Source: Calditrichia bacterium (GTDB taxonomy: Bacteria; Calditrichota; Calditrichia; JAJRVZ01). Taken from it: a stretch of DNA of 64,000 nt. The translations under genes were made by a program, and so were the position numbers. Numbering within the stretch: position 1 is the first letter of the stretch; every line of letters begins with the position of its first letter. The notes under the pieces are model-generated. The model was not told the DNA's origin, made no database searches, and saw only the letters and a list, made by a program, of their open reading frames with translations. This document shows positions 3,167 to 9,810 of this stretch, in pieces. The DNA lies in NCBI GenBank assembly GCA_963777955.1, contig CAVZSQ010000022.1, positions 160,001-224,000 of the forward strand, read 5' to 3'.

Positions 3167-3511
3167 TCAGTCTATTTTCACTCCATCATCATGCGGGTAA
3201 TAACGGCGATAAACGATATTGCTCAGCATGACCGCCCCCTGATCATTAACTTTAATTCTACGTTTGGTTAATTCGGTCTCGATCAGTTTTAAGGAATCCT
3301 GCCAGGAATGATGTGATTCCAGCTGCTGAATAAATTGCCTGAACTCGGCTTCTCTGCCGTTGAATACCTTATTATTGATTAATTTTGTAGTCCTGGGATT
3401 CAACAGAGAATCTATAGAAGCCAGATTCCGGACGGGTTTTGTTCCGCGATGTTTCGCCGGAGCTGGTGCAGTAATCTCGTCGTCACTGCGACTTATTAAT
3501 TTATCTGTCAT
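3167..3511 (-). CDS. Hypothetical protein
   Basis: ORF with GGAGA SD before ATG 3511; no recognisable motif. Confidence 0.65.
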   Translation of the reverse strand: MTDKLISRSDDEITAPAPAKHRGTKPVRNLASIDSLLNPRTTKLINNKVFNGREAEFRQFIQQLESHHSWQDSLKLIETELTKRRIKVNDQGAVMLSNIVYRRYYPHDDGVKID

Positions 3512-3622
3512 GTCATAATCTCCAAATATTTCCAGAGTTTTGATCAAGGTCAAAATCAAAAACTCGAATTAATAATTTTGTCAGTTCAAATATGCTACCG
3601 GTACTTTTATGATATTATGAAA

Positions 3623-4249: not shown

Positions 4250-5068
4250 TTATAGGCGGATAACGGCCTCGGCATGTTCGGGTAAAGCCCGAAAAATCGC
4301 TTTGGCATCTGCTTGCGACAGTTTGATTTTTATCCTCAACTCCGGTTCCGGCCACTTCAGTTTTGTCAGAGTATATATAAATTCAAGTCCTTTTTCAAGG
4401 CGAAATTGTAAATTCCGGAAATGTTTTTCAAACCATCCGGTAAAAATGAATGCTTCGGTCTGATCGACCTGTATGATCAGGTTTTTATTGAATTGCAGGA
4501 TGAAACGGACATCCTGTTTCTCCAGCGGGGGATTAGCATCGACCATTTCCTTAGCTTCATTAGTGTCAGCCGGAGCCTCTTTCACTTTAATGGGCGCTTT
4601 GGGCAAAGTAGCCCAGTAATCCTGCAGGAAAAAACTGTCGGCAAACCAGGAATTTAATACACCTTTCTCTTTGGCATAGCGCAAAACCGGCGAGATATCG
4701 TAATCCTGAATCTTGCAAGAGCGGACCGAAACTCCTTTAATATCGATACTGATCAGACTATCGGACAAATCAACCGCCATTTTGATGGAATCTTTTTTAG
4801 CCATTTTTAACCGGTTCTTCCAAAAATTCCTGGCTATAAACAGATCGCTAAATTCCGAATTTTCGCCGGCAGGAACCTGTTGCGGGTCAGTTATAGTTTT
4901 AGCGGTAATGTTTTCCGGTACACTGGCGGCAGGTCCAGACAATAACTGCATATAATGCAGGGAACTTATCAGGTTGATGACAATCAGGGTGACGGCCGGC
5001 AACAGAATTACCAGACAAACAATGAACAGCCGTTTGCCGCTTTTAAACAGATAGTTCCTGATTTCCAT
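4250..5068 (-). CDS. Membrane-anchored YkuD-like protein lacking the catalytic His/Cys
   Basis: N-terminal TM; C-terminus IKLSQADAKAIFRALPEHAEAVI parallels CIRLGDEDLRKVYQALSLGSRIFI of the neighbouring LDT, without H/C. Confidence 0.6.
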   Translation of the reverse strand: MEIRNYLFKSGKRLFIVCLVILLPAVTLIVINLISSLHYMQLLSGPAASVPENITAKTITDPQQVPAGENSEFSDLFIARNFWKNRLKMAKKDSIKMAVDLSDSLISIDIKGVSVRSCKIQDYDISPVLRYAKEKGVLNSWFADSFFLQDYWATLPKAPIKVKEAPADTNEAKEMVDANPPLEKQDVRFILQFNKNLIIQVDQTEAFIFTGWFEKHFRNLQFRLEKGLEFIYTLTKLKWPEPELRIKIKLSQADAKAIFRALPEHAEAVIRL

Positions 5069-5084
5069 AGATGTGTTCAAGTCT

Positions 5085-5870
5085 TCAATAAATAAATATT
5101 CTTGAACCAAGGCTCAGTGCCTGGTATACTTTTCGCAAGTCTTCATCGCCCAGGCGAATACAGCCGTGAGTTACCGGCATGCCCAGGAACCTTTGATAGA
5201 GGGTTCCATGAACCAGATAACCGTTACCGAAGGCCAGGGCATATTCACCTAACACACCATATTCATAGCGCTCAGGTGAATCGGGCGGGGGCACAGGCAG
5301 GCCTTCTTCGATGAAAGCCCAATCCGGCATACGCCATACCGGCGCTTCAACTTTCACCTGTACCCGGTACATTCCACGGGGAGTCTGAAATATCCATTGA
5401 CGCTGGTCGGATGCTTTGAGTAGTATGAAACTGCCGGTGGAACATACACCGTGATGTAAAACTTTTTTTCCATTTCTTATATAAAATTCATTATCGGCTG
5501 AACTTACTACCAGGTAGGGTTGTCTGGGCGTCAGTTGATCGAAAGCGCGGCGTAAAGCGGCCACTTCATACTCGAGTTTCTTCCAGGTCTTCGATTTTTT
5601 GGCCGCCGTGCTGTCAATTTGCCGGGCAGTGGTCATCCAGGCTGCACCTGTCGCCCATATCTCCCGGATTTCCGTGGTCAGCAGCATGATCACTAGCGCC
5701 AGCCCGAGACCGGCAGCGACTACGCTAATCCAGAATCTGCGCGGGTTGATATTCCCAGCGGACTGGATTTCCTCCCGGTCAGGGATTATTTCCTGCCCGT
5801 GCTTTTCAGTTTCCGGGCCGCTGTCACTTTTTTCAGTAGCTGAGTGGGACCGGGCGTTTGTTTCCTGCAT
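5085..5870 (-). CDS. L,D-transpeptidase (YkuD/ErfK family), membrane anchored
   Basis: TPRG, YLVHGT...THGCIRL catalytic motif; one TM helix. Confidence 0.9.
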   Translation of the reverse strand: MQETNARSHSATEKSDSGPETEKHGQEIIPDREEIQSAGNINPRRFWISVVAAGLGLALVIMLLTTEIREIWATGAAWMTTARQIDSTAAKKSKTWKKLEYEVAALRRAFDQLTPRQPYLVVSSADNEFYIRNGKKVLHHGVCSTGSFILLKASDQRQWIFQTPRGMYRVQVKVEAPVWRMPDWAFIEEGLPVPPPDSPERYEYGVLGEYALAFGNGYLVHGTLYQRFLGMPVTHGCIRLGDEDLRKVYQALSLGSRIFIY

Positions 5871-5876
5871 AGATGG

Positions 5877-7026
5877 TTAATTTAAATGATTGTTAGAATG
5901 ATTGAAATTGATTTGATAATTTTTTGTGGTGCCAACGATAGTAACCGGGGTACCCACCTGGACCATGGCAAAAATCTTATCAATTTCCTGGTTACGTAAA
6001 GCGATACAACCGTCGGTCCAGTTCAGACCCTGGCCGCCCTCGCCGTGAATCTCAATAAGGCCGCCTATGTTGGCATCGAGGGGAAGATCTCCGTTAACCA
6101 GGGCAGAATAAAAACGCAGCCAATCCGCTTCATTGGGATAATCAAGATTCAAAGCTTTATAAAATTGAGTTTCTTTTCCCTGGCGTTTTTTGGTGACATA
6201 ATACCTGCCTTCAGGAGTGCGTCTATCACCTTTGTGCGTCTTGGTGCCGATCCAATTAGGGCCCATCTCAACGGCAAACTCGAATAAAAGAGTATCAGCC
6301 TGAAAGACACGACAGGTATGATCCAGTTTATCTACAATCAGTGCCGTGTGGCCGGAACTTTGCGCATAGTCCAGTGTCTCTTTTACCCATTGTTGCCATG
6401 TGGGAATTTTACTTAAGTATTTGTTAATTTCTTCCACCAGATTAGAATTGGCAAACGATATATGTTCCGCGGCTTTTTGCAGGATCAAATCTGCAGCAGA
6501 ATAATCTTTGCGTTCCAACAAATACCCTCCCTGCCGGACCAGTAATTCACCATGGATGATATGTTGACGCAATTCGACAGCGATGGGTATGATGTCAAAT
6601 TTTATGCGGTACTGCTCAGCCTGGTCCTGCAGATAAAACATTTTCAGTCTCAGCGCAAGTTTCAGGGAATCTTTGCATCACCTGAGTCCGCCGGATGGCT
6701 TGCCGGAGATCGGTATTGATTTTTAATATTAATTTTTCCGCAGTTTCATAGCGGCGAAGAGGGGGGAAACGTTTATTCTGAGTCTGGATCATCTGCCGGG
6801 ACTTTTCCCAGTTGTCATGGGCCTGCTGCATCACCGGCGCAACATAATTTTCAGCATCAATTTTTCGTGCTTGACTGTTGAGTTCGAGATACAGGATCAT
6901 GGCCGCCTGCGGCAAGCGCGGTTGCAGAACCAGCATCAGGATTATACCCATTATCAGGACTACAGGAATGGAAACTGCCAGTACGACCAGGCGGACTAAT
7001 TTTCTATTATAAGGCAGATTAAACAT
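5877..7026 (-). CDS. YkuD-family protein of the YafK/DpaA-like type with an N-terminal helical domain; frameshift near 6673
   Basis: GDRRTPEGRY, LDYPN, IEIHG...WTDGCIAL; removing one A at ~6673 joins ORFs 6616-7026 and 5877-6641 (VMQDSLKLALRLKMFY). Confidence 0.85.
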
Positions 7027-7109
7027 ACTGAATATATTCGTAATTTCTTTAAAATCGATTAATATTAATTTTACGATTGTCTTGTAATGTACACTTGTTT
7101 TTAAAGGTC

Positions 7110-7156
7110 AAAAAAAAACCTCGTCTTAAAAGATGAACACTCTTAAAACGAGGTTT
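7110..7156 (-). terminator. Rho-independent terminator after the lipoprotein gene
   Basis: Minus strand AAACCTCGTTTTAAGAG / CTTTTAAGACGAGGTTT stem (with G-U pairs) running into a T tract. Confidence 0.8.
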
Positions 7157-7178
7157 CAAAAATACGCTGAATCGTTTA

Positions 7179-7796
7179 TTACTTGCTCATGGAAGTGATC
7201 TTGGCTTTCATGGCTGCGGCATTGCCCAATTCGGCAATCATATTATTGACCTGATCCAGGACGGTTTTGGCTTTGTCCCGGGCAACCATGTACTGGCCTT
7301 GCTCCTGGCTCTGTGCGGCCACGGTCAGTTCTGAAGCGATCGTTTGCAGATCATTCTGGAACTGCATCATGACCATTTTGCCTTCTTTGCCTCTGGGTGC
7401 TTTGGCTAATTTTTTCTTAGCCAGATCTATAGCGGCAGCGGCCTGTTTGATCAAGGTATCGGCTTCGGCACGTACTTGTTCTTTATTTACGGCAGCCTGT
7501 TGACCAAGTCCCGCGGCTGCGTTGGTTACGCCTTCAAGCAGGGTCTTAACCCGGTCATAGTTTCTGAACAGACCGAACTTGGCATCCTGAGTTTGTATCT
7601 CAGCCTGAGCGGCTTCGAGAGAATCAGTTACGGCTTTAAAAGCATCGGCAACGTAAATATTAGCTTCGGCTTTAACCGCACCTTCCAGGGCAGCTTTGGC
7701 TGCTTCCAGTTCCTGAACAGGAGCTTTGGCGCACCCGCTGAACAGGACCAGAGTCAATACCATCACAACCAGAGTAAGCATAGTGTTCAACTTCAT
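7179..7796 (-). CDS. Ala-rich helical lipoprotein (DUF4398-like) with C-terminal Lys
   Basis: Lipobox LFSG-C; Ala/Lys/Gln-rich coiled-coil sequence; ends ITSMSK; AAAGGA SD. Confidence 0.85.
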   Translation of the reverse strand: MKLNTMLTLVVMVLTLVLFSGCAKAPVQELEAAKAALEGAVKAEANIYVADAFKAVTDSLEAAQAEIQTQDAKFGLFRNYDRVKTLLEGVTNAAAGLGQQAAVNKEQVRAEADTLIKQAAAAIDLAKKKLAKAPRGKEGKMVMMQFQNDLQTIASELTVAAQSQEQGQYMVARDKAKTVLDQVNNMIAELGNAAAMKAKITSMSK

Positions 7797-8212
7797 AAAT
7801 TATCCTTTCTTGTTAGATATTTTTGGTTTAAATTTCTGTAAACTACTTAATTATAAGTATTTATCCATGCAAAATAATGTTACTGTTCTTTCTAAATCCC
7901 CCGGGGGCATATATTTTTTCGCACTTACAATGATCAGCTGTTCAATCAAATTCTTATTTAAGGCCCCTTATTGGATGGGAAAAATATCCTATAATTTAAT
8001 TCAGTAAACCATGTTTGTCAATATCTTGATTAGTCTCTGTTATTATTTTTTTAGTATTGGTAATCAGGTAAAGTTGGACCCTTTCAGGCTTGATTGTATA
8101 GGGCTGATTTTCTTTTCTTTAAAATCTTGCAATTATCGTTTTCTTTTTTTAGAATCCAGCTCATCTATGTTAATCCTCATCAGATCATTTCAATGAAAGT
8201 AAAAATCAGAGA

Positions 8213-9810
8213 GTGCTTATGCGTACGGAAAAATGTTCTCAGCTGTTTTTGATCTTCTCAATTTTAATTATCGACGCAGTCCTGCTTAATTTTCTACCGT
8301 CCTGTCAACAAAATAAAGAGCTTCTTCAAAAAACCTATGCTGCCGATACCCTGGTGGGTGACTGGCAGGGTAAAATAGTAACGTCGACCGGAATCGAACA
8401 ACCGCTCGCTGCCCAGATCGTCTCCTATGCCGGGGGGAAATACAGATTGAATCTGCTCGGCAATTTTGATACGCGCGATAGCGCGCTGGGCAATCTGGAT
8501 GCCCGCGAAAAAGACAGCCTGCTTGATTTTTCAGGAATAAGTAATGGTAGCGAATGGCAGGGCACCATCGATGGTAATAGTTTTAAAGGGGTCATATCCG
8601 GAAAGTTAACCGGTCAATTTAATATGGCCAAAGTTGAGCGTTTATCGCCTACCCTTAATCAAAAACCACCGGAACAGGCTGTTGTTCTGTTTGCCGGGAC
8701 GGGTCTGCAGCATTGGCAACAAGTGGGCGATCCGGTCTGGTATCTGAATTTAGCCCGGCAGTTGGGTGGAAATGATCGGGTAGCTTATCTGCGCAGTTCC
8801 CTGTGGTCCGATACTGATCAGCAGGTAATGCTGTTATTGGGCAGCGATGATGGAGTGAAAGTCTGGCTTAATGACAAGCTGGTCTGGTCCAACGCCAGGA
8901 ATCGCGGGGCCGAACCAGACGATGATACAGTTAATGTAGCGTTGATCGAAGGCTGGAACACGATCATGTGCAAAATCGCCAATGGGGATGGTGGTTGGGG
9001 CGCATATGTGAAAATGGTAAATCCGGATGGTTCTGCTCTCAATAATATATATGAACAAATAGCTGCTGCAGCGGATGGCAAGAGCAGAGACAGGCTGGAA
9101 AAAAATGATAATTATTTGACGGTGTGGCAAATCAGCCGTCAGGCCTTTACGCAGAAAGGATTGACGGGTAATCAGTTACTGGAGCCTGTTTTCCCCCCGA
9201 GCAACAGGGGGGTGACTGGCAGGAATTGGGTTTGAGTGCGGTGAATTATTCAGCAAAGTGGAAAGTTAAAGATGGTGCTATGGAGGTATTGCCCGGCAGC
9301 GGTTCCCTGGTGAGTAAACAGAAGTTTACTGATTTCTTCCTGCATATTGAGTTTCGTACACCATTCATGCCTGATCAAACCGGACAAAAACGGGGTAACA
9401 GCGGTGTTTATCTGCAAGGCAGGTATGAAGTTCAGATACTGGATAGTTATGGACTGGAAGGTGCAGATAATGAATGCGGAGGCATCTATAAAGTCGCCCG
9501 GCCGCGGGTCAATATGTGCGCACCGCCCCTGCAGTGGCAGACTTATGATATCACCTTTACCGCGGCACGATTTGATTCCGGCGGCGTTAAAATAAACCCG
9601 GCTCAGATTACCGCAATTCATAATGGCGTACCTATACATGAAAATCTGATTCTTCCCGGACCGACCGGTGGTGCCCTGGACCGGAACGAGAATGAACCCG
9701 GTGGTATCATGCTGCAGGATCACGGGAATTTAGTGCAATTCAGGAATATTTGGGTGGTGGATAAAGGCACTGAGGCACTAAAGCACAAAAGGAAAGTGCG
9801 ACCGCCCTGA
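8213..9810 (+). CDS. Lipoprotein with a DUF1080 (3-keto-glycoside processing) domain; frameshift in C6 run at ~9195
   Basis: Lipobox-like FLPS-C; GNSGVYLQGRYEVQILDS, WQTYDI, LQDHGNLVQFRNIW; ORFs 8213-9235 and 9226-9810 join. Confidence 0.85.

Follow-up and report, generated by a model that had tools for sequence, protein, structure and literature searches.

The closest described systems are E. coli Lpp with LdtA/B/C and DpaA (YafK/LdtF), and P. aeruginosa OprI with LdtPae2 and LdtPae3 (compared here from parts of PMC8263019 and PMC10434034). Lpp is described as restricted to a few gammaproteobacterial orders (section cited of bioRxiv 10.1101/2021.05.31.446380), and the covalent protein-wall links in the portions of the literature covered are all proteobacterial. 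DpaA-like enzymes occur in many Lpp-less bacteria, with substrates given as unknown in the part of PMC8263019 cited. The locus analysed here resembles the Lpp system in its helical lipoprotein, a similar predicted reach and the combination of Cys+2-Arg and Cys+2-Ala YkuD enzymes. In contrast, its lipoprotein displays no homology to Lpp or OprI and does not keep the terminal lysine, and while Lpp and OprI are trimeric single-helix coiled coils, its modelled monomer folds back into a rod of five helices. Unlike in the Lpp system, the enzymes appear membrane-anchored and are encoded in the lipoprotein's own operon together with an additional, apparently dead paralogue, and a second copy of the rod is built into the putative hydrolase. 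Attachment through an internal lysine, as proposed below for Lys137, has a precedent in Coxiella burnetii LimB, joined to mDAP via Lys21; in the passages cited, however, LimB is Coxiella-specific, its enzyme is unknown and its tether is short (~35 Å), whereas here a dedicated operon extends across several phyla (PMC12274547, PMC12729407). No description of the operon was found in the literature consulted, mostly non-subscription papers without supplements, and no function for DUF4398 is described in the parts of the literature found.

The window is a stretch of 64,000 nucleotides in which four co-oriented genes, their motifs and an internal terminator were confirmed as the sequence-only reading had described them, all on the minus strand, as are the other elements below. 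Gene 1 (7179..7796) encodes the lipoprotein, a 205-residue protein with the lipobox LFSG-C22 and the C-terminus ITSMSK that had been read from the sequence. It is separated from gene 2 by a terminator-like element (7106..7157) comprising an 18-pair hairpin and a T run. In the nearest relative, L001, gene 2 is a single gene for 382 residues, but here an additional base at ~6675 breaks it into two open reading frames (7026-6616 and 6641-5877). The frame at 6616..7026 contains an N-terminal hydrophobic segment and the first part of the rod copy before it leaves the reading frame past that base, and that at 5877..6641 the remaining rod copy and a hydrolase-type YkuD domain. Treatment as two separate genes was rejected, and the extra base is probably an assembly error; the ribosomal L16 and S17 genes are also frameshifted in the source assembly. 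In four of 24 listed sequencing runs, no read spans 6581-6793. Gene 3 (5085..5870) encodes a membrane-anchored, L,D-transpeptidase-type YkuD protein with His221, Cys237 and Arg239, and gene 4 (4250..5068 or 4250..5110, starting at ATG 5068 or TTG 5110) a predicted YkuD fold without His/Cys.

Bacteria of the Calditrichota, KSB1 and Bacteroidota carry all four envelope genes together. The synteny check proposed with the sequence-only reading revealed the order lipoprotein-gene 2-gene 3-gene 4 across the best 80 of 216 genome loci, where gene 3 is present in 80, gene 2 in 78, gene 4 in 76 and the lipoprotein in 72; all 8 loci missing the lipoprotein among these best 80 lie at contig ends. Lipoprotein and gene 4 mark an identical 20 of the 86 genomes of the window's phylum. 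They give 49 and 45 hits, respectively, in 134 KSB1 genomes (44 in common). In a Bacteroidota order represented by 301 genomes, strong hits number 46 and 44, again with 44 in common. A three-gene core of lipoprotein, gene 3 and gene 4 also exists, with one copy elsewhere in the source genome; the lipoprotein thus travels with the putative transpeptidase and not with the putative hydrolase. Since the operon is absent from 66 of the 86 relatives in the phylum, it is not an essential tether. The view that the genes form a self-contained envelope module, strongly conserved where Lpp is missing, was upheld, and no PF04728 match is present in the source genome.

Gene 3 is, by sequence, transpeptidase-type: the HGT..HGCIRL signature read from the sequence lies in a PF03734 domain (E 3e-17) that includes the His and Cys, and arginine occupies Cys+2 in 206 of 206 gene-3 proteins. 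According to the section of PMC8263019 cited, the Cys+2 residue separates YkuD transferases from hydrolases; with alanine at this position in 166 of 171 gene-2 proteins, the assignment of attach- and detach-type signatures agrees with the sequence-only reading. By NCBIfam equivalogs gene 3 is not an LdtA/B/C orthologue (~30 bits against cut-offs of 480-583), and it scores alike against the cross-linking LdtE and the Lpp-attaching families, all far under cut-off. YkuD function is not assignable from lineage (PMC10434034, part cited), and gene 3 may therefore merely make 3-3 cross-links. This would suit a different, rather unlikely arrangement: a wall-remodelling complex anchored in the membrane, with the lipoprotein as its non-covalent partner (activator, spacer or scaffold), gene 3 responsible for 3-3 cross-linking, gene 2 for trimming or cutting stem peptides, gene 4 as a structural subunit and the APxGK loop of the lipoprotein as a protein-contact site. 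Such a scaffold gains from gene 3 being no closer to Lpp-attaching families than to LdtE, and explains equally well the co-occurrence of the genes, the extreme conservation of gene 3 and the loop decay in orphan lipoproteins described below.

Gene 2 is DpaA-like and hydrolase-type as judged from its residues. The IHG..WTxGC signature noted earlier was recovered as IHG..WTDGCIA (PF03734, E 6e-19), with His199, Cys212 and Ala214, the last at the Cys+2 place that is Ala or Asn in DpaA, while Lys134 and Phe160 are the equivalents of DpaA Lys83 and Tyr109. The former is present in 169 of 171 gene-2 proteins and the latter is Tyr in 94% of 78, with Phe in the window; the equivalent of DpaA Tyr131 (loop L3) is absent, being Leu/Ser/Met. 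The DpaA family NF040599 is the best-scoring family (38.8 bits in the window and 37.5 in L001; cut-off 365). Similar to Csd6, Pgp2 and Bd1075, gene 2 displays K-x-x-x-GD-x-x-TPEG and a non-Arg residue at Cys+2, and its profile matches these L,D-carboxypeptidases (E 3e-11 to 4e-7) about as well as DpaA (2e-10), in keeping with a trimming enzyme in a scaffolded complex. Unlike them, however, it lacks the L2 insertion, aligning gap-free to the DpaA L2 loop (this and the Tyr131 feature are from the part of PMC10653827 cited), and has a membrane anchor and a helical rod. The Trp of the carboxypeptidase D-Ala pocket, a position mapped via the Pgp2 alignment, is found in 0 of 171 gene-2 proteins; two residues before the catalytic His it is replaced by Glu in 167, Gln in 3 and Ala in 1, which argues against the carboxypeptidase role. 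The whole lipoprotein has a paralogue in the N-terminal half of gene 2 (hhalign 99.3%, E 1.8e-20, 170 columns); this rod copy lacks the PxGK loop (present in 1 of 124).

Gene 4 has no Pfam match and is unnamed by Pfam, NCBIfam and Atlas, its nearest named Atlas cluster being YkuD (33% at 0.81). The top 18 VIA-align rows for its model (pLDDT 88.8) are all YkuD-family (Z 9.5-6.2; best row Z 9.5, rmsd 4.0, 101 aligned), as are the top Foldseek matches (best E 0.004); at E<=0.001, Foldseek returned no match for the gene 4 or lipoprotein models. The catalytic His/Cys motif occurs in 0 of 192 homologues. The structural model is in line with the YkuD-like protein without His/Cys that had been read from the sequence, and identifies gene 4 as a predicted YkuD-fold pseudoenzyme. 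Gene 4 is a diverged paralogue of gene 3 (50.6%, E 1.6e-4). Complex prediction for gene 3, gene 4 and the lipoprotein gave 0.68, against 0.00 and 0.00 for unrelated partners; the control in which another protein took the place of gene 4 reached 0.58, too close for the result to count either way. Covariation between the proteins (APC mutual information; 158 loci, effective number 126) was set aside, as its highest pairs draw on a few recurring columns and appear phylogenetic.

Rather than an Lpp homologue, the lipoprotein appears to be a folded-back rod of DUF4398 type. It has no match to PF04728 and scores 16.5 bits against NF040598 (cut-off 43). The monomer is predicted as a folded-back two-bundle helical rod of five helices (pLDDT 92) with a central helix of 52 residues; at the usual helix rise of 1.5 Å per residue, the predicted reach is about 78 Å, about the length of Lpp. 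A tether longer than Lpp, as had been suggested, did not emerge, because the chain folds back and the predicted ~78 Å compares with an E. coli outer membrane-wall distance of ~85 Å (PMC12729407, part cited). PF14346 (DUF4398) weakly matches 46 of 134 lipoprotein relatives (E<=0.01) and not the window protein itself. The best structure match is the DUF4398 protein PA2901 (PDB 4FM3; Z 11.4, rmsd 4.1, 93 aligned, 18% identity), with which EzrA and Borrelia BB0323 tie (Z 11.0-11.3), Z values below ~13 being common among helical bundles. PA2901, with one module (95 residues solved), resembles only the N-terminal half of the lipoprotein, and by structure, the profile match being weak; the protein described here has a further bundle, which bears the APxGK loop. 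Clusters in the Atlas that are richest in Nitrospirota and Spirochaetota also resemble the lipoprotein. Only Cys22, Pro26 and Lys137 are invariant across the 183 distinct lipoproteins, 96 representatives of which share a mean identity of 41%. The lipobox Cys22 is found in 183 of 183, partly because the set was selected for a lipobox, and in 300 of 303 unselected database homologues.

The sequence-only reading had centred on a Lys-terminated lipoprotein. Lysine is indeed the last residue of the window protein, although no more than chance would give for a basic tail: it ends 77 of 183 locus lipoproteins (Arg 68) and 94 of 303 database homologues, and in 120 homologues the last residue is Arg in 50, Lys in 41, Met in 15 and another in 14. 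The tail swaps Lys and Arg freely. Non-conservation of this lysine had been named as evidence against the idea from the outset; the count of 77 of 183 also led to rejection of a terminal-Lys homology to Lpp, and a tether survives only with a different acceptor residue. An Lpp-like attachment at or near the C-terminus, through the terminal residue or through the column 196 lysine that opens the basic tail, seems improbable. Lysine is among the last six residues in 167 of 171 lipoproteins of four-gene loci and occupies column 196 in 170 of 183, the model places the tail at the distal end together with the APxGK loop, and in the parts of PMC12274547 and PMC11841132 cited Lpp boxes tolerate change and Legionella Lpg1810 uses a near-terminal internal lysine. 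Against this, the window protein has Met at 196, and the three-gene loci, which retain genes 3 and 4, often lack the whole basic tail, with ends such as AELQ, GELAR and QAGY.

The APRGKEG loop (7380..7400; residues 133-139) contains the candidate acceptor Lys137 (codon 7388-7386) and is predicted at the membrane-distal tip, opposite the lipid. Lys137 is unchanged in 183 of 183 locus lipoproteins and never Arg in operon copies, which speaks against a mere scaffold contact site. It is kept in 302 of 303 database homologues, the exception being a gap in a fragment, and in 76 of 76 short-type homologues, only 13 of which have any Lys in the last six residues. Lys105 is nearly as constant (299 of 303). 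Six orphan lipoproteins come from five incomplete genomes that lack genes 3 and 4, four of which have other YkuD genes, and represent only three lineages (quick lipoprotein tree); in these six, loop positions are kept in 7 of 36 cases and other conserved positions in 98 of 138. PxGK is found in 0 of 6, while Lys105, Pro26 and Tyr48 are each present in 6 of 6; the tail lysine is retained in 5 of 6 while the loop is lost, contrary to a C-terminal acceptor. Lys137 itself remains in 7 of 12 orphan lipoproteins and in 3 of the 6 whose genomes lack the enzymes, a number that rises to as many as 5 when one pair is moved by one residue. The covariation pair 133-190 places Glu189 near the loop, making a structural salt bridge with Lys137 possible. 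Given covalent attachment, Lys137 is the probable site; the LimB Lys21 link cited above is the precedent for an internal lysine (PMC12274547, PMC12729407, in part).

That the operon is a covalent lipoprotein-peptidoglycan tether, probably through Lys137, has about an even chance of being correct. From family knowledge, gene 3 would form an acyl-enzyme with a tetrapeptide and transfer it to an amine, and the DpaA-like gene 2 would cut the bond again by hydrolysing the mDAP-amide. The wall stem peptide would in this way be joined to a lipoprotein lysine, for which Lys137, in the loop at the predicted rod tip, is the favoured candidate; gene 4, the non-catalytic paralogue, would probably help gene 3 as adaptor or stalk partner, and the loop-less rod copy in gene 2 may act as a ruler or dock on the lipoprotein. 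The complete scheme, a tether outside Proteobacteria that arose independently of Lpp, with a DUF4398-derived rod, an APxGK lysine, a ligase of gene 3 and a pseudoenzyme, and DpaA-like release with a substrate copy, is put forward tentatively. With a candidate substrate, ligase and release enzyme and one defined residue for mutation, the operon allows a direct test of the question in E. coli. If true, a DUF4398 protein would gain its first function and the YkuD family an example of a conserved pseudoenzyme, and the internal-loop ligation tag would offer a new handle for wall display.

The strong terminator proposed after gene 1 was borne out by a hairpin (7157-7115) of -23.5 kcal/mol (z -4.5; 0 of 200 shuffles as stable). 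It is conserved across loci, as terminators follow 157 of 187 lipoprotein genes against 7 of 195, 22 of 202 and 10 of 168 for genes 2, 3 and 4, respectively. It may lead to lipoprotein excess, and fits bulk structural protein over the 1:1 activator of a scaffolded complex. Codon bias does not support high abundance: on a percentile scale of ribosome-like bias the window lipoprotein stands at 33, compared with 87 for the second copy and a ribosomal median of 94, and this modest value favours the scaffold. A sigma-70-like promoter candidate (TTGACA-17-TAAATT, 7993..8021), by consensus match only (10 of 12 positions; 18 sites found against 12 expected), lies ~200 bases upstream of the lipoprotein gene. 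Asp at +2 occurs in 0 of 113 lipoproteins, which in E. coli means export, although the rule may not carry over to these phyla; the lipid is somewhat more likely to sit in the outer than in the inner membrane. The +2 residue weighs against an inner-membrane lipoprotein that ties the wall there, sets the distance as OutB does, or binds only electrostatically through its basic tip. This placement is doubtful as a separate explanation and partly overlaps the preferred covalent tether, because the chemistry could be identical. It would suit the rod of gene 2, whose position behind an N-terminal hydrophobic segment suggests that inner-membrane anchoring is compatible with rod function, and the three YkuD proteins, all of which look inner-membrane anchored. 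Neither LolA nor Pal was found over cut-off in the source genome (92% complete), and OutB provides a precedent in the part of PMC12274547 cited. The source genome also encodes seven OmpA-domain proteins, which could tether non-covalently.

In the window the lipoprotein gene is accompanied by three genes with a YkuD fold, all on the minus strand, and the LFSG-C lipobox, Lys end, terminator and co-oriented genes described in the sequence-only reading are all present. Gene 1 (7796-7179, minus strand) encodes a 205-residue lipoprotein with lipobox LFSG-C22 and C-terminus ITSMSK. Between genes 1 and 2 lies a hairpin of 18 pairs followed by a T run (7157-7106, minus strand), with a stability of -23.5 kcal/mol; 200 of 200 shuffled sequences were less stable. 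Read as ORFs, gene 2 is split in two (7026-6616 and 6641-5877, minus strand), while it is a single 382-residue gene in L001, the nearest related locus (labelled Calditrichota, gene 3 81% identical). DNA alignment with L001 places one extra base at ~6675 in the window. Since in the same assembly the sequence of ribosomal protein L16 runs through three frames and that of S17 through two (G000:C13:203098-204019, L316), the split is probably an assembly error, and caution applies to any split gene in this genome. Gene 2 is also split in a few other loci (L021, L052, L054, L056). Within the terminator hairpin, 13 bases (7130-7142) are the reverse complement of those in L001 (~3240-3260), with the arms unchanged. 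Two abutting ORFs of 340 and 194 residues at 8213-9810 (plus strand) may represent a single gene broken by another indel; the second contains the greater part of a PF06439 3-keto-disaccharide hydrolase domain. A 130-residue ORF with no family match (3167-3559, minus strand) lies downstream of the operon, as it does in L001, L008, L011 and L015, and is absent from most loci.

The operon is real and conserved. Synteny, proposed earlier as a check, was compared in the best 80 of 216 genome stretches with a gene-3 relative, and both order and gene set recur: all 80 have gene 3, 78 have gene 2, 76 have gene 4 and 72 have the lipoprotein, arranged as in the window wherever the genes occur. Contig ends account for all eight lipoprotein misses and three of the four gene-4 misses; in L033, which has room for gene 4, none was found by BLAST. 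These 80 loci are labelled Calditrichota, KSB1, Bacteroidota, Fibrobacteres and, in a few cases, Deltaproteobacteria. In the window's phylum, lipoprotein and gene 4 mark the identical 20 of 86 genomes. Among 134 KSB1 genomes the lipoprotein was found in 49, gene 4 in 45 and both in 44, and among 301 sampled genomes of a Bacteroidota order the numbers were 46, 44 and 44, not counting four weak gene-4 matches that fell within unrelated long ORFs (E 1e-5 to 7e-4). The module is rare in two further phyla (3/151 genomes in one; in the other a strong match only in the seed genome among 201). These counts describe a module that is tightly linked, patchy and not universal. Clustered at 50%, the matches of the gene-4 profile amount to 624 representatives. 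A total of 11 distinct loci have a three-gene form that lacks gene 2, and one of these is a second copy in this genome (G000:C13:400844-402967, L317), comprising a lipoprotein 36% identical to that of the window, its own hairpin (intergenic stretch ~-36 kcal/mol) and paralogues of genes 3 and 4, with no hydrolase. Together these two copies account for every PF03734 match in the genome, three in all. No published description of the operon was found in the literature searched.

The residue at Cys+2 separates transpeptidases from DpaA-like hydrolases, according to PMC8263019. Gene 3 (His221, Cys237) has Arg at this position in 206/206 homologues, and gene 2 has Ala in 166/171. The best model match of gene 2 is DpaA, yet far below the cut-off; its L2 loop aligns with that of DpaA without gaps. 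It retains the equivalents of DpaA Lys83 and Tyr109, without that of Tyr131, and has Glu where the D-Ala pocket of carboxypeptidases has Trp (residue features from PMC10653827). These signatures argue firmly for a hydrolase. A detaching amidase is only likely, because Bd1075, Pgp2 and Csd6 are matched by the gene-2 profile about as strongly as DpaA is. Gene 4 is, by hhalign, a diverged paralogue of gene 3 (50.6%, E 1.6e-4; 3.4% against gene 2); its predicted structure has a YkuD fold and the His/Cys motif is found in 0/192 homologues. The trio of attaching, detaching and inactive YkuD proteins read earlier stands in its transferase-type, hydrolase-type and His/Cys-less signatures, while its detaching member is likely rather than firm, the carboxypeptidase match being about equal. 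An N-terminal hydrophobic segment in all three proteins, seldom with a lipobox, makes an inner-membrane anchor likely. The entire lipoprotein has a paralogue in the N-terminal half of gene 2 (99.3%, 170 columns), a rod copy lacking the GKEG part of the 133-139 loop (PxGK in 1/124).

The lipoprotein model (pLDDT 92) displays helices at mature-chain residues 6-21, 29-51, 60-111, 116-144 and 148-183, forming two three-helix bundles along one 52-residue helix. This predicted topology would put the C-terminus and the 133-139 loop at a distance of some 80-90 Å from the opposite end, which carries the lipid together with an aromatic loop. The best structural match of the N-terminal half is the DUF4398 protein PA2901 (Z 11.4), on a par with EzrA and Borrelia BB0323; homology to Lpp was ruled out by profile searches. 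The family may extend past the phyla sampled here, given that Spirochaetota and Nitrospirota are the best-represented phyla in its nearest Atlas clusters (202-216 residues). A strong hairpin and U run follow the lipoprotein gene in 157/187 loci (gene 2, 7/195; gene 3, 22/202; gene 4, 10/168), which fits the excess of structural protein earlier ascribed to an internal terminator. The codon usage of the window lipoprotein is unremarkable and counts against high abundance: it ranks at the 33rd percentile, compared with 87 for the second copy and a ribosomal median of 94.

The C-terminal Lys, taken in the sequence-only reading as the point of attachment, is terminal in 41/120 first homologues, 77/183 distinct lipoproteins from the loci (excluding four that were truncated or unparsed) and 94/303 database homologues, so its conservation was not borne out. 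In short-type lipoproteins, the type seen in three-gene loci, the tail is mostly missing and any Lys occurs in the last six residues in 13/76 (proteins without gene context, including a few fragments). Compared across these sequences, the tail is simply basic. The lysine of the APxGK loop, Lys137, occurs in 183/183 locus lipoproteins, 96/96 representatives at 70% identity, 302/303 database homologues (the exception is a fragment) and 76/76 short-type proteins, and is never Arg. PMC12274547, PMC11841132 and PMC12729407 describe attachment through an internal lysine in Coxiella LimB and through a near-terminal one in Legionella Lpg1810. Attachment through the C-terminal lysine has the latter as precedent and is, given these counts, improbable here.

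Our preferred reading, held at about even odds, is that the operon encodes a covalent lipoprotein-peptidoglycan tether. The lipoprotein would be the acceptor: gene 3 would cut between mDAP and D-Ala in a tetrapeptide and pass the stem to the Lys137 amine. Gene 4, which no copy of the core lacks, would hold the rod or present it. Gene 2, which is dispensable, would undo the linkage, and its rod copy, devoid of the loop, would serve either to position the catalytic domain at the proper height or to dock on the substrate. The reactions assigned to genes 3 and 2 follow family knowledge (PMC8263019, PMC10434034 and PMC12729407). Such a tether would work like Lpp/LdtA-C/DpaA, but the lipoprotein differs from Lpp in homology, fold and terminal Lys and is no member of that family. 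The signs on the membrane side are mixed: Asp occupies +2 in 0/113 lipoproteins, but a profile search of the genome gave no LolA over the cut-off, and the genome encodes seven OmpA-domain proteins. An inner-membrane or electrostatic version of the system as a whole is improbable.

Twelve orphan lipoprotein copies found away from any YkuD gene serve as a natural control; they branch off at several places within the family in a quick tree. Six of them, belonging to three lineages, come from five incomplete genomes in which neither gene 3 nor gene 4 was found. Pro26, Tyr48 and Lys105 are retained in all (6/6 each) and the tail lysine in 5/6, while loop positions are kept in 7/36 versus 98/138 elsewhere and PxGK in 0/6. 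Because orphans lose the loop yet keep Lys105, this pattern marks the loop as tied to the enzymes and Lys105 as structural, though with limits. Lys137 itself is retained in 3/6 of these and 7/12 orphans overall; in the G466 orphan, from a genome in which no YkuD gene was found, it is Arg. In the main rival, which we hold to be less likely, the lipoprotein would activate or scaffold 3-3 cross-linking through non-covalent contacts. A salt bridge or contact surface would yield a similar Lys137 pattern, since Glu189 lies near the loop by covariation, some orphans keep Lys137, and the enzyme-less copies are three lineages in incomplete genomes. Orphans in L302, L303, L307, L308 and L314 adjoin genes resembling TetR, ECF sigma/anti-sigma and two-component genes (judged by their N-terminal sequences), which suggests reuse of the lipoprotein in stress regulons. 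In another locus, a 563-residue protein (L309:1649-3340) with a hydrophobic segment, which by its motifs we take to resemble a Ser/Thr kinase, carries a C-terminal copy of the rod that keeps PRGKE, and is possibly a sensor using it.
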